Source: Escherichia coli (lineage in GTDB: Bacteria; Pseudomonadota; Gammaproteobacteria; Enterobacterales; Enterobacteriaceae). Taken from it: a stretch of DNA of 64,000 bases. The stretch lies in NCBI RefSeq assembly GCF_003790525.1, contig NZ_CP033635.1, one strand, 5' to 3'. Of this stretch, positions 24,001 to 30,000 are shown one piece after another. A program made the position numbers. The stretch's first letter is position 1. The number at the start of each line of letters is the position of its first letter.

Positions 24001-27000
24001 CTAAGCTGGATTGGATATGGTGCCCTGATCACCGCCGTTCCGTTGATTACTGTTGGTATTCTGGCGCGGATGTTAGCCAAAATGAATTACCTGACCATGT
24101 GCGGGATGCTGGCTGGCTCCATGACCGATCCACCGGCGCTGGCATTTGCTAATAATCTTCATCCAACGAGCGGTGCAGCGGCGCTCTCTTACGCCACTGT
24201 CTATCCGTTAGTGATGTTCCTGCGCATTATCACCCCCCAATTACTGGCGGTGCTCTTCTGGAGTATCGGTTAACTCTTCTCCGGGTGGAGTCGCCGTAAA
24301 TGGTACTCCACCTGGTATTCGCTGGCATTTCTGAACATCACTGAATAATTCAAAAACTCCCCGCTCTCGCTATAGGACAACGAGGTGATCCGCAGCAGTG
24401 GCGTGTGTTCCGCTACCTTCATTTGCCGCGCCAGCAGTCTATCGGCGAGCACCGGCGTCAGGCTTTCATAATTACCGCCAATCAGAATCCCGCACTCTTG
24501 TTCAATATATTCAAACTTCGACCCTTCCAGATGTTGCAGCGAAAGGTTACGGAACAGTTTTACCGGCATATAGCTGTCTTCCAGCATCAGCGGTTTCCCT
24601 TCCACAAAACGAACGCGACGGGAGAAGTAGATCTGCTCGTTGATTTGAATCCGTAACTGGCTGGCAATGGCCGGAGGCGCAGGCATGATTTCAAAAATCA
24701 GCACCTGGCTGGTGACCGTTTTTCCCTGCCGTTTTAACACCTCCACCAGCCCGGTCAGGCTGGCGGTTTGATGCAATACATCTTTGCGCACCAGGTAAGT
24801 ACCGCTACCGTGGCGGCGGACCACCAGCCCCCACGCTACCAGCAGATCAATGGCTTTACGGATGGTCATCCGCGATACCGCAAACTCTTCCGCCAGCTTT
24901 TTTTCACCGGGAAGAAGGCTGTTTAGCGTGAAATCTGCGGAATTAAGTCGAATTCTTAACCGCTCCGCAATGCTTTTGTAGATCATCTCTAGATCTCTTT
25001 TTTGCCTGCAAGCCCGGGTAATGCGCCCACAAGTTCTGCTTAATCGATTGAAAAAACATCTTTTTTTTAAAGATGTGTTCGTTGCTGTGTACCAGTGCTC
25101 ACAGATGTCTACTTTTTTGCGAAAACGTAGATCTCTACCGCCCAACGAAAAGCATGAAAGCGATCACGAATCCCATTGGGTCGTCATGTTCTGCCGATCG
25201 CATCTTCCTATCCTCGCTCCAGGCCTGCCGCATAACCAATCAGGCTTCCTACTTACAGAATTGAGAAAAGAGGATGTGGAAATGCTCAGTCAAATTCAAC
25301 GCTTTGGCGGCGCGATGTTCACGCCAGTGCTGCTGTTTCCCTTCGCCGGGATTGTGGTGGGTCTTGCCATCTTGCTGCAAAACCCGATGTTTGTCGGGGA
25401 ATCACTGACCGATCCGAACAGTTTATTCGCGCAAATCGTACATATTATTGAAGAGGGCGGTTGGACGGTATTCCGTAATATGCCGCTGATTTTTGCTGTC
25501 GGTTTACCCATTGGCCTTGCTAAGCAAGCGCAGGGGCGAGCTTGTCTGGCGGTGATGGTGAGTTTCCTGACCTGGAACTATTTCATCAACGCGATGGGAA
25601 TGACCTGGGGAAGCTACTTCGGCGTCGATTTCACTCAGGACGCGGTGGCAGGTAGCGGTCTGACAATGATGGCCGGGATTAAAACCCTCGATACCAGCAT
25701 TATCGGCGCAATTATCATTTCCGGCATTGTGACGGCGCTGCATAACCGTCTGTTCGATAAAAAACTGCCGGTGTTTCTCGGCATTTTCCAGGGGACATCT
25801 TATGTGGTGATTATCGCCTTCCTGGTGATGATCCCCTGCGCCTGGCTGACGTTGCTCGGCTGGCCAAAAGTACAAATGGGGATTGAATCTCTGCAAGCGT
25901 TCCTGCGTTCGGCGGGTGCGCTTGGGGTCTGGGTTTACACCTTCCTCGAACGTATTCTGATCCCAACCGGTTTACACCACTTCATCTACGGACCGTTTAT
26001 CTTTGGTCCGGCAGCTGTTGAAGGCGGCATTCAGATGTACTGGGCGCAGCATCTGCAAGAGTTCAGTTTGAGCGCCGAGCCGCTGAAATCGTTGTTCCCG
26101 GAAGGCGGTTTTGCCCTGCACGGTAACTCAAAAATCTTTGGTGCCGTGGGCATTTCTTTAGCGATGTACTTCACTGCCGCACCGGAAAATCGGGTAAAAG
26201 TGGCGGGCTTGCTGATCCCCGCAACCTTAACCGCCATGCTGGTGGGAATTACCGAACCGCTGGAATTTACCTTCCTGTTCATTTCACCGTTGCTGTTTGC
26301 GGTACACGCTGTGCTTGCGGCCTCAATGTCGACCGTGATGTACCTCTTTGGTGTGGTGGGCAACATGGGCGGAGGTCTGATTGACCAGGTTTTACCGCAA
26401 AACTGGATCCCGATGTTCAGCAACCACGCGGATATGATTTTGACCCAAATCGCCATTGGGTTGTGCTTTAGCCTGCTGTACTTCGTGGTTTTCCGCACCC
26501 TGATTCTGCAATTCAACATGTGCACGCCGGGACGTGAAGATGCGGAAGTGAAACTCTACTCAAAAGCCGAATACAAAGCCTCGCGAGGCCAAACCACCGC
26601 GGCAGAGCCAAAAAAAGAGCTGGATCAGGCTGCCGGTATCCTGCAAGCCCTGGGCGGGGTCGGCAATATCTCCAGCATCAACAATTGCGCGACGCGTTTA
26701 CGTATTGCACTGCATGACATGTCACAAACGCTGGATGACGAAGTCTTTAAAAAGCTGGGAGCGCACGGCGTCTTCCGTAGTGGCGATGCCATTCAGGTGA
26801 TCATTGGTTTGCATGTATCCCAGCTGCGTGAACAGCTCGATAGCTTAATTAATTCTCATCAATCAGCAGAAAATGTTGCCATTACGGAGGCAGTATAATG
26901 ACCAAATTCTCAGTGGTTGTCGCAGGCGGTGGAAGCACCTTTACGCCAGGCATCGTGTTGATGCTCCTGGCGAATCAGGACCGTTTCCCGCTTCGTGCAC

Positions 27001-30000
27001 TGAAATTTTATGATAACGATGGTGCGCGGCAGGAAGTGATTGCCGAAGCCTGTAAAGTCATCCTTAAAGAAAAAGCGCCGGACATTGCGTTTAGTTACAC
27101 CAACGATCCTGAAGTGGCATTCAGCGACGTTGATTTTGTCATGGCGCACATCCGCGTCGGCAAATACCCGATGCGCGAACTGGATGAAAAAATCCCGCTG
27201 CGCCACGGCGTTGTTGGTCAGGAAACATGCGGACCCGGCGGAATAGCGTACGGCATGCGTTCCATTGGCGGCGTCCTGGAACTGGTGGATTATATGGAAA
27301 AATATTCACCAAATGCCTGGATGCTCAACTACTCCAACCCGGCAGCCATTGTCGCAGAAGCCACGCGTCGTCTGCGCCCGAATGCGAAAATCCTCAACAT
27401 CTGTGACATGCCAATCGGTATTGAAAGCCGGATGGCGCAAATTGTTGGGCTGCAAGATCGCAAACAGATGCGCGTGCGCTACTACGGCCTGAACCACTTT
27501 GGCTGGTGGACATCAATTGAAGATTTGCAGGGCAACGACCTGATGCCCCAGCTGCGGCAATATGTCTCTAAGCACGGTTATGTTCCACCGCAGCAAGATA
27601 CACATACTGAAGCGAGCTGGAACGACACCTATGCAAAAGCGCGGGATGTCCAGGCACTGGACCCGGATACATTGCCGAACACCTATCTGAAATATTATCT
27701 CTTCCCGGATTATGTCGTTCAGCATTCCAACCCTGAACATACCCGCGCGAATGAGGTGATGGAGCATCGCGAGAAACAGGTTTTCGATGCTTGCCGCGCC
27801 ATTACGGCGGCAGGAAATTCAGCAGCGGGCAAGCTGGAAATTGACGAACATGCGTCATACATCGTCGATCTGGCGGCGGCAATTGCCTTCAACACTCAGG
27901 AGCGGATGTTGCTGATTGTGCCTAACAACGGGGCAATTCATAACTTTGATGATGAAGCGATGGTCGAGATCCCGTGTCTGGTCGGGCACAACGGACCAGA
28001 ACCACTGGTGGTCGGCGAGATCCCGCAGTTTCAGAAAGGGTTAATGAGTCAGCAAGTGGCGGTGGAAAAACTGGTCGTGGACGCCTGGGAGCAGCGTTCA
28101 TATCAGCACCTGTGGCAGGCGATTACGTTGTCGAAAACGGTACCGAGCGCCGCGGTCGCCAAAGCTATTCTGGATGAGTTGCTGGAGGCCAACAAAGCGT
28201 ACTGGCCAGAGTTACGTTAATTGTGTGGACTGGCATCCGTTGGGTGCTGGTCCGTATTCTTCAGCACAGCTGACGGCGCATAACCAAATTTATTTTTAAA
28301 GGCTTTGCTGAAATGAAAGGAGTCGAAGAAGTTGAGCGTATCAGCGACTTCGCCAACCGAGTTTCCTTGTTGTTTTAATAGCGATAGCGCCAGATCCAGA
28401 CGCGCATCGAGGTAATATTCTTTCGGCGTCTTGCCGGTATAGCGTAAAAACAGACGACGCAACCAGGCTTCGCTACAGGGGATCGTGGCAGCCATATCAG
28501 CTACGCTCCAGCGTTGTTGCAGACTGGCATGTAAAGTGGCAATTAAATTTTCAATTTGCCGCCGTTGTGGATCTTTTTTACCGTCTGCGTACATAAGACA
28601 AATCCACTGATAAATAATTTTCGTCAGAAAAGCGACTGCCAGATTATTTTTTATTGCTTCTGGTGAAGTTATTAACTCAGCAACTTCGGTGAGTTCCTGA
28701 TTATAAATTTCGCCATTATAAATAACGCTTTGCTGACCAACGGGAATATCCATCATACTGGTTGGGGTAAATTCCATCCAGTACTGTTCCCATACTAAAC
28801 CTTCACAGTGATAAGAGTGAATATCCATTGGCTTTAAAAATATAATACAGTTGCCATGCAGTGTTATTTGTTCACCATTCTTTAAAATAATTTTCCCACA
28901 TCCTTGTACGGTATACACCGCAACCCATGAGTTGGCGATAAGCGGTTTCTTCTTGTCCCGCGGCCAGATCACCCGGTAATGCTCGTCGGCGTAGGTATGC
29001 CAGAGCGAGATCAGAGAAATTCCGCTGGAGATCACATTTTCGTTAATCAATAAGGGAATATTGTACGGAGTTTCGTTTTTTACATCCGAACTTTGCAATT
29101 TTCCATTCATTTTAATATCCCTCCGGCGAATTATGCTCACAACCTGAACTTAACAGAAAACAATCCGTTCAGGGATACGACGTTTGTATTTTAAGAATCT
29201 GACTGCCTGACCCGACGCATTTTACCTCTCCCTATATTCATGCGTCCGGGACATAAACATAAATAAGGGCTATGAGATGAATTCGTTACAAATCTTGAGT
29301 TTTGTCGGTTTTACGCTGCTGGTGGCGATCATCACCTGGTGGAAGGTTCGCAAAACAGATACCGGATCGCAACAAGGCTATTTTCTTGCCGGACGTTCAC
29401 TAAAAGCGCCGGTTATTGCCGCTTCGTTAATGCTAACCAACCTTTCCACGGAACAACTGGTTGGACTTTCCGGGCAGGCCTACAAAAGCGGCATGTCGGT
29501 GATGGGCTGGGAAGTCACTTCTGCGGTGACGCTGATCTTCCTCGCGCTAATCTTTTTACCGCGCTATCTGAAGCGTGGCATTGCCACCATCCCCGATTTC
29601 CTGGAGGAACGTTATGATAAAACGACGCGTATTATCATCGACTTCTGCTTCCTCATTGCCACCGGTGTCTGCTTTCTGCCGATTGTTCTCTACTCCGGCG
29701 CGTTGGCGCTCAACAGCCTGTTTCACGTCGGGGAATCGTTACAAATTTCCCACGGTGCGGCTATCTGGCTATTGGTAATTTTGCTTGGTCTGGCGGGAAT
29801 TTTGTATGCGGTGATCGGCGGACTGCGCGCAATGGCAGTGGCGGACTCCATCAACGGTATTGGGCTGGTTATTGGCGGGTTGATGGTGCCGATATTTGGC
29901 CTGATCGCGATGGGCAAGGGCAGCTTTATGCAGGGCATTGAGCAACTCACCACCGTTCACGCCGAGAAATTAAACTCAGTCGGTGGCCCGACCGATCCCT

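Follow-up and report, generated by a model that had tools for sequence, protein, structure and literature searches.

The glv locus of Escherichia coli, in a stretch of 64,000 nucleotides (the window; NCBI RefSeq assembly GCF_003790525.1, contig NZ_CP033635.1), is very probably an undamaged copy of an ancestral enterobacterial operon for the uptake of alpha-glucosides by the phosphotransferase system (PTS). The operon, glvCB-glvG (aglA-aglB in Klebsiella pneumoniae), lies at a conserved site between yidE-yidP and yidL and would encode a membrane permease that imports and phosphorylates an alpha-glucoside, together with a hydrolase that splits the phosphorylated product. Its two genes occupy 25282–28220 on the plus strand. 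The first, glvCB (aglA orthologue, 25282–26898), is an unbroken open reading frame (ORF) for a single-chain alpha-glucoside-family EIICB of 538 residues. The second, glvG (aglB orthologue, 26898–28220), is an unbroken ORF for a protein of 440 residues, predicted to be an NAD+/Mn2+-dependent 6-phospho-alpha-glucosidase of glycoside hydrolase family 4 (GH4). The six-frame ORF list has no internal stop or frame break in either gene. Region 25100–28300 is 100% identical to the chromosome of E. coli SMS-3-5 (NC_010498.1), for which RefSeq gives two intact coding sequences with the same coordinates: WP_000952122.1 (‘PTS sugar transporter subunit IIB’) and WP_000160091.1 (‘6-phospho-alpha-glucosidase’). 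The initial annotation, which described an intact glv operon at 25282–28220 with a 538-residue EIICB bearing a CATRLR motif and an uninterrupted 440-residue GH4 enzyme, is borne out in each of these respects.

The first ORF, as listed, spans 25021–26898 (+). A 625-residue reading from ATG 25021 is ruled out by the orthologues, the family model and the ribosome-binding site, all of which point to ATG 25282: this codon follows a GAGGA ribosome-binding site (25270–25274), is the start position of all orthologues, and yields a protein that aligns to TIGR02005 from residue 2. The TAA stop of EIICB overlaps the ATG of the GH4 gene (TAATG), with GGAGG upstream, and by this arrangement glvCB and glvG are taken to be a typical translationally coupled pair.

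The EIICB protein matches TIGR02005, the model for alpha-glucoside-specific IIBC components, with 955.7 bits (cutoff 607.3), residues 2–523 aligning to model positions 1–524. Pfam domains PF02378 (EIIC; residues 10–346, 3.7e-71) and PF00367 (EIIB; residues 453–482, 2.1e-12) are both found, as are the motif GITEP at 322, a TPGRED linker at 415, and CATRLR at 469–474 (window 26686–26703), in which Cys469 is the phosphorylatable cysteine. An EIIC membrane domain followed on one chain by an EIIB domain with the cysteine motif C-[AI]-T-R-L-R is the organization of the EIICB family. The protein remains under the cutoffs of the glucose, N-acetylglucosamine and maltose equivalog models; for the PtsG equivalog models the scores are 316 bits against a cutoff of 592 and 246 against 647. 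It has full-length homology (199 bits) to the E. coli PtsG EIICB structures 8QSR/9HNP. Family-model and Pfam searches and the annotation revealed no EIIA domain in the EIICB protein or in neighbouring genes. The genes ptsH-ptsI-crr are present in 5425 of the 5426 complete E. coli genomes on which all population counts below are based.

The product of glvG is covered over its full length by both GH4 domains, PF02056 (residues 6–184, 4.1e-66) and PF11975 (residues 195–415, 6.5e-56). It scores 911.9 bits against the structures of the 6-phospho-alpha-glucosidase AglB from K. pneumoniae (6DUX/6DVV) and 748.1 bits against GlvA from Bacillus subtilis (1U8X), as compared with 209 and 148 bits against the GH4 phospho-beta-glucosidases 1S6Y and 1UP7. 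The score against the alpha-galactosidase model NF011657 is 177 bits (cutoff 486). The sequence contains GGGS at residues 10–13, which we take to be the N-terminal NAD+-binding GxGS motif, CDMP at 169–172, His200 and Tyr263. GlvA numbering is offset by +2 relative to glvG, as given by the 1U8X alignment coordinates, and CDMP, His200 and Tyr263 presumably correspond to Cys171 (metal ligand), Asp172 (catalytic), His202 (metal ligand) and Tyr265 (catalytic) of GlvA. By its sequence, glvG belongs to the AglB/GlvA/MalH group of 6-phospho-alpha-glucosidases.

The same locus and genes are found in E. coli K-12 (glvC-glvB-glvG; b3683, b3682 and b4556), where they are described as a ‘cryptic arbutin-like PTS’. 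As stated in the initial annotation, glvC (1107 nt) and glvB (486 nt) are separate genes in NC_000913.3 and glvG is a pseudogene (815 nt). Alignment of window positions 25001–28500 (3.5 kb) with K-12 revealed 35 substitutions and one internal indel, and located both K-12 lesions. A C in the window at 26386 (+) is a T in K-12 (C26386T), which changes EIICB codon 369 from CAG (Gln; window 26386–26388) to TAG. This single amber codon is the reason for separate glvC and glvB genes in K-12; the stretch that begins at the glvC start and ends with the glvB stop measures 1617 nt in K-12 and in the window alike. The second lesion is the absence from K-12 of window 27491–27998 (+), a 508-bp segment comprising glvG codons ∼199–367 that the window retains in frame. 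Its length is not a multiple of three, so the deletion shifts the frame and leaves a truncated product of ∼212 residues without the residues from ∼199 on; the region from the Mn ligand His200 through residue ∼367 is thus removed in K-12, whereas it is kept in the window. The 8-bp direct repeats GAACCACT flank the segment (27491–27498 and 27999–28006), and a deletion bounded in this way is characteristic of slippage or illegitimate recombination between short direct repeats. A further change in EIICB, P238Q, is found in K-12 and some relatives, at a position where proline is invariant in 46 outgroup sequences and is retained in the window. The window has neither of the two lesions that characterize the K-12-type cryptic locus, and its organization is not that of K-12, which is split and deleted.

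The intact layout is not confined to E. coli. When species-representative genomes were scanned for the GH4 protein, 79 loci were recovered, and the proteins of the neighbouring genes in the window were mapped onto them. In the window, ibpA-ibpB-yidE-yidP precede the operon and yidL-yidK-yidJ follow it. The order ibpA/B-yidE-yidP(−)-EIICB(+)-GH4(+), often followed by yidL-yidK-yidJ, recurs across genera of the Enterobacteriaceae, including Citrobacter braakii, Klebsiella, Raoultella, Kluyvera, Pseudocitrobacter, Enterobacter, Lelliottia, Kosakonia, Phytobacter, Cedecea and Buttiauxella. The locus from K. pneumoniae ATCC 13883 is shorter and shows the adjacent EIICB-GH4 pair only; the window proteins are 81.2% (EIICB) and 88.6% (GH4) identical to these orthologues at the amino acid level. 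Beyond these genera, yidP-EIICB-GH4 also occurs as a module in Serratia, Proteus, Aeromonas, Pectobacterium and Vibrio, and the EIICB-GH4 pair in Clostridium, Leptotrichia and Bacillus (GH4 identity 72–76%). The conserved synteny across genera implies that the intact layout is ancestral, and gene order together with sequence identity makes the E. coli genes positional orthologues of K. pneumoniae aglA/aglB. In every syntenic enterobacterial locus, EIICB consists of one chain of ∼540 residues. The description of EIICB as fused in the initial annotation therefore holds as far as the single chain is concerned, but not as a fusion, since the single-chain state is ancestral and shared with Klebsiella AglA.

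Two variants of the locus were encountered among these genera. Kluyvera (loci L006 and L007, ∼8365–12280) and Superficieibacter (L026, ∼8368–12300) have a second, diverged tandem module between the first copy and yidL, with a yidP-like regulator of 56–61% identity and a GH4 protein of 85–86% identity; an EIICB match (75%) was seen in the second module of L026 only. The E. coli operon corresponds to the first copy. In C. braakii ATCC 51113 (L003, ∼5380–7000), the long tblastn match to EIICB starts ∼600 nt further downstream than in other genera and failed the >90% coverage filter, and EIICB may be disrupted in this strain while GH4 is intact.

Within E. coli, the locus is detected at a coverage of at least 80% in 4267 genomes. 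Codon 369 was typed with 55-nt probes centred on the single-nucleotide polymorphism, so that any 28-nt seed spans it. The CAG allele was found in 3925 genomes and TAG in 348, together 4273, or about the locus total. K-12 laboratory derivatives or recipients make up nearly all of the 40 listed TAG genomes. The 508-bp glvG segment is held by 1652 genomes (30%), while the K-12-type glvG deletion is carried by ∼2600 (48%), all sampled members of which share an identical 2693-bp span. The glvC/glvB split is thus peculiar to the K-12 lineage, whereas the glvG deletion is widespread. The operon is absent from a further ∼1150 genomes (21%), in which the match comprises only ∼51 bp of yidL. In Nissle, a B2 strain, 89 bp separate yidE from yidL and the yidP-glvCB-glvG block is cleanly gone (L087, 4244–6861; window ∼24273–28217). 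A table of genes present or absent by strain group in Touchon et al. 2009 (PMC2617782) includes glvC.

Thirteen genomes with the full glvG segment were sampled for integrity of the locus, and the EIICB and GH4 ORFs are both open in 11 of them. Eight have intact yidP, EIICB and GH4 genes (SMS-3-5, O55:H7 TB182A, GF4-3, DA33137, O157:H7 FRIK944, ST69, TW10598 and JNE21-003). The other three combine intact structural genes with a yidP pseudogene, caused by a frameshift in BL21 (L083, 750–1387) and 0H25 (L094, 1–496) and by an internal stop in OkiPb01711 (L097, 1–496); at least two independent mutations account for these pseudogenes. Should YidP be the repressor, BL21 (a workhorse strain), 0H25 and OkiPb01711 may express the operon constitutively. 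Of the remaining two genomes, strain 504239 has both structural genes disrupted, by an internal stop and a frameshift, and the assembly of BS-01 is full of errors. Intact copies are common in E. coli, O157:H7, O55:H7, BL21 and ST69 being examples.

Both genes have evolved under constraint. Pairwise ratios of nonsynonymous to synonymous change (dN/dS, Nei-Gojobori) within E. coli are 0.00–0.05 for EIICB (11–27 synonymous versus 0–4 nonsynonymous differences) and 0.03–0.13 for GH4. The replacements specific to the window are conservative (M386I and T397S in EIICB; T69N, D374E and S419A in GH4), and none is at an outgroup-invariant position.

We propose that the membrane EIICB imports an alpha-linked glucoside and phosphorylates the glucosyl O-6 through Cys469. 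The phosphate would pass from phosphoenolpyruvate (PEP) to EI, HPr and the shared EIIA-Glc (Crr), which is the proposed partner because the operon encodes no EIIA. The NAD+/Mn2+-dependent GH4 enzyme would then split the 6-phospho-alpha-glucoside into glucose-6-phosphate and the aglycone. By analogy with the characterized orthologues, from which we infer substrate range, Crr dependence and regulation, candidate substrates are palatinose, turanose, maltulose, leucrose and trehalulose (sucrose isomers), isomaltose, maltitol and methyl-alpha-glucoside. When expressed in E. coli K-12, K. pneumoniae aglA/aglB supported growth on methyl-alpha-glucoside, isomaltose and five sucrose isomers using the EIIA-Glc of the host (Pikis 2006, as cited in Abe et al. 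2017, PMC5309279). B. subtilis glvA/glvC similarly conferred crr-dependent use of isomaltose, panose and isomaltitol on E. coli (as summarized in Abe et al. 2017, PMC5309279). Use of alpha-glucosides by the window strain is a reasonable expectation from orthology with AglA/AglB, and the operon would be expressed in it. Arbutin, a beta-glucoside and the origin of the legacy K-12 label, is an unlikely substrate of a GH4 phospho-alpha-glucosidase. Published tests of DSM 30083, the B2 type strain, with palatinose, turanose, maltitol and methyl-alpha-glucoside gave negative results (PMC4334874).

The divergent yidP gene (24270–24986, −) probably encodes a repressor of the operon, and cyclic AMP (cAMP)-CRP probably activates expression. 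YidP (238 residues; WP_001300779.1) has an N-terminal winged helix-turn-helix of the GntR family (PF00392, 6.8e-21) and a C-terminal UTRA effector domain (PF07702, 1.2e-30), the architecture of a GntR/HutC repressor. The gene is divergent from EIICB-GH4 in all enterobacterial loci examined, and YidP is the presumed repressor of the operon. An alignment of 35 yidP-EIICB intergenic regions revealed conserved blocks in the intergenic control region (24987–25281, +), which contains a candidate operator, a CRP-like site, a -10-like hexamer and the ribosome-binding site. An inverted repeat, GTCTA-N∼15-TAGAC, is conserved across genera (GTCTAC at 25107–25112 and GTAGAT at 25127–25132 in the window) and is a plausible candidate for a HutC-type operator bound by YidP. 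The CRP-like sequence caTGAaagcgaTCACg at 25153–25168 is likewise conserved across genera. CATGTT (25185–25190) is followed, after an 18-nt spacer, by the -10-like hexamer TATCCT (25209–25214; TATTCT in the cross-genus block). With this spacing the CRP-like site would lie near -61, the arrangement of a class I CRP-dependent promoter, and the proposed start of transcription is near 25221. No intrinsic terminator was detected in the scan of 24900–25400. Control by an RNA leader was rejected, as 24200–29300 has no Rfam match at E≤1 and the leader folds no better than shuffled sequences (z=+0.65).

Several observations weigh against an intact and functional operon. The locus is clearly dispensable in the species, being lost or broken in ∼70% of genomes. 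Our literature search found no growth or expression data for SMS-3-5 or any other E. coli with an intact glv locus. In a strict scan of 24900–25400, the 295-bp intergenic region showed no match to the sigma-70 consensus, and the E. coli blocks are slightly degenerate (TATCCT versus TATTCT; half-site GTAGAT versus GTAGAC). E. coli EIICB differs at three positions that are invariant in 46 outgroups (A292S, H380S and D430E) and is 80–81% identical to the proteins of Klebsiella, Raoultella, Kluyvera, Enterobacter and Cedecea, which are 87–95% identical to each other.

The promoter observations raise the possibility of an operon that has intact ORFs yet is silent at the level of transcription, like bgl or chb/cel, so that alpha-glucosides would be used only after a regulatory mutation such as loss of YidP. 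The missing consensus promoter and the off-consensus hexamer and half-site fit this explanation, as does the occurrence of yidP pseudogenes beside intact structural genes in three of the 13 sampled genomes, the pattern expected if loss of a repressor is sometimes selected. A strict consensus scan, however, would overlook class I CRP-dependent promoters, which typically lack good -35 elements. Conservation across genera is also seen in the CRP-like site, inverted repeat and ribosome-binding site, yidP is intact in eight of the 13 genomes, and the dN/dS values of 0.00–0.13 on both genes imply past expression and selection in nature. We regard a silent operon as unlikely, though with a real chance of being correct.

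The divergence of EIICB, including A292S, H380S and D430E, means that the substrate range could differ, and the operon might work on a substrate other than the sucrose isomers and maltitol used by Klebsiella. Forty-three E. coli-specific replacements, these three among them, fall at sites where conservation among 20 close relatives is at least 90%. However, the majority are conservative changes concentrated in the linker, IIB and the C-terminal end of IIC, away from the sugar-binding core. Tajima relative-rate tests give a significant excess with a Serratia outgroup only (50:18, p=1e-4) and are non-significant with Proteus (35:26) or Aeromonas (33:33), which argues for a deep branch rather than a functional shift; we rejected accelerated or relaxed evolution of E. 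coli EIICB as a gene-tree effect on the same grounds. With an identity of only ∼60%, B. subtilis GlvC nevertheless mediates transport of isomaltose, panose and maltitol-type sugars in E. coli (PMC5309279). A changed substrate is improbable.

The species-wide pattern could also be viewed not as simple decay but as a maintained polymorphism of three states (intact; glvG-deleted with EIICB; fully deleted). In that case, recurrent loss of YidP in BL21, 0H25 and OkiPb01711 would have been selected for constitutive alpha-glucoside use in some niches, and the open EIICB in ∼2,270 glvG-deleted genomes might have a GlvG-independent role. In nine sampled carriers of the deletion (L002, L086 and L098–L104), EIICB has 25 synonymous and six nonsynonymous segregating changes, and the 5′ remnant of glvG has nine and one. 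The ratio is thus equally low in the dead remnant, so that the diversity must predate the deletion or have come by recombination, and the apparent constraint on EIICB in these genomes is inherited polymorphism and no proof of function. The comparison (9:1 against 25:6) is uninformative as a signal that EIICB is kept for a GlvG-independent function, and lends such a role no support. The occurrence of the deletion allele on diverse flanking haplotypes suggests that it spread, or had its flanks replaced, by homologous recombination rather than undergoing long independent decay. We consider a maintained polymorphism of this kind a speculation that is probably wrong, and somewhat more doubtful than a shift in substrate. 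The idea that the genes only seem intact and are at an early stage of decay through missense changes while the species as a whole loses the locus agrees with its dispensability, with the deletion of the operon in ∼21% and of glvG in ∼48% of genomes, and with independent lesions elsewhere such as the internal stop and frameshift of strain 504239, but it is very improbable given that all catalytic and phosphorylation motifs are kept, that no window-specific change affects an outgroup-invariant position, and that dN/dS is far below 1.

We therefore retain the intact ancestral alpha-glucoside operon as the best explanation for the locus. This is the ordinary, already annotated and already known state, and K-12 is the oddity; no new biology is implied, and the practical value is modest. 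The names and models derived from K-12 (glvC, glvB, glvG, ‘arbutin-specific’) describe a mutated locus, and this artefact propagates into annotation. The full 538-residue EIICB (WP_000952122.1 and other alleles) is named ‘PTS sugar transporter subunit IIB’ by RefSeq and its annotation pipeline (PGAP). NF007255 (PRK09702), a 161-residue equivalog model, matches EIICB residues 378–538, the span of the K-12 GlvB fragment, and this match is the apparent cause of the name. As the GlvB fragment results from the K-12 amber codon, a mutation in K-12 has shaped the product name across thousands of genomes. The phenotype is also predicted to depend on the strain: ∼30% of E. coli, O157:H7, O55:H7, BL21 and ST69 among them, should be able to import and cleave sucrose isomers, isomaltose and maltitol. 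These sugars serve as ‘non-metabolisable’ sweeteners and also occur in industrial glucose feedstock, and the prediction bears on the choice of fermentation strains, metabolic models and Biolog-based typing.

On its 3′ side the operon is bounded by yidL (28217–29110, −), a convergent neighbour that encodes an AraC-family regulator and groups with yidK-yidJ rather than with glv. The stops of yidL and glvG overlap by 4 nt (28217–28220) and are both read from the palindromic TTAA; no intrinsic terminator was found between the two convergent genes. In TW10598 (L093, 3727–5507) and OkiPb01711 (L097, 3727–5514), yidL-yidK-yidJ are replaced by a degraded IS200/IS605 tnpA and an intact gene for a TnpB/InsQ RNA-guided endonuclease, leaving a 75-nt stub of yidL. 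K-12 has yidI (450 nt) between yidH and yidJ; SMS-3-5 and Nissle have a gap of ∼60 bp there with no yidI annotated (window ∼32483–32541). Compared with the K-12 order, the window has two additional hypothetical genes between uhpA and ilvN (∼39120–41320, −) and a RelE/ParE toxin with a helix-turn-helix antitoxin between nepI and yicN (∼50380–51040, −). The far end of the window has genes related to the E. coli type III secretion system 2 (ETT2): eilA, an 8.8-kb gene for an inverse autotransporter (EaeX/Air) and an IpaD/SipD-like gene.

Among characterized systems, aglA-aglB of K. pneumoniae (Thompson et al. 2001 and Pikis et al. 2006, as cited in PMC5309279 and PMC12728616) is the counterpart of the E. 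coli operon in its gene order, divergent GntR regulator and flanking ibpAB-yidE genes, as well as in its domains, an EIICB without EIIA and a GH4 enzyme with CDMP. It differs in that E. coli EIICB lies on a deeper branch than AglA, with its 43 lineage-specific replacements, and in that the E. coli locus is polymorphic (intact, glvG-deleted or absent) and has no phenotype documented in the literature we found. The glvA-glvR-glvC operon of B. subtilis (malA-glvR-malP) has the two-component chemistry that is predicted for the E. coli operon, with an EIICB that relies on EIIA-Glc and a GH4 NAD+/Mn2+ enzyme; the B. spizizenii locus is 73% (GH4) and 60% (EIICB) identical to that of E. coli. In the Gram-positive host, however, the gene order is reversed, with the hydrolase first, and an intervening regulator, presumably of a different type, replaces the divergent GntR/HutC gene. 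E. coli PtsG shares the Glc-family EIICB fold, the domain order, the EIIB cysteine motif and the predicted EIIA-Glc partner of the glvCB product. Unlike PtsG, glvCB is paired with a phospho-glycosidase, a coupling explained by the nature of its predicted substrates, which are disaccharides or glycosides.

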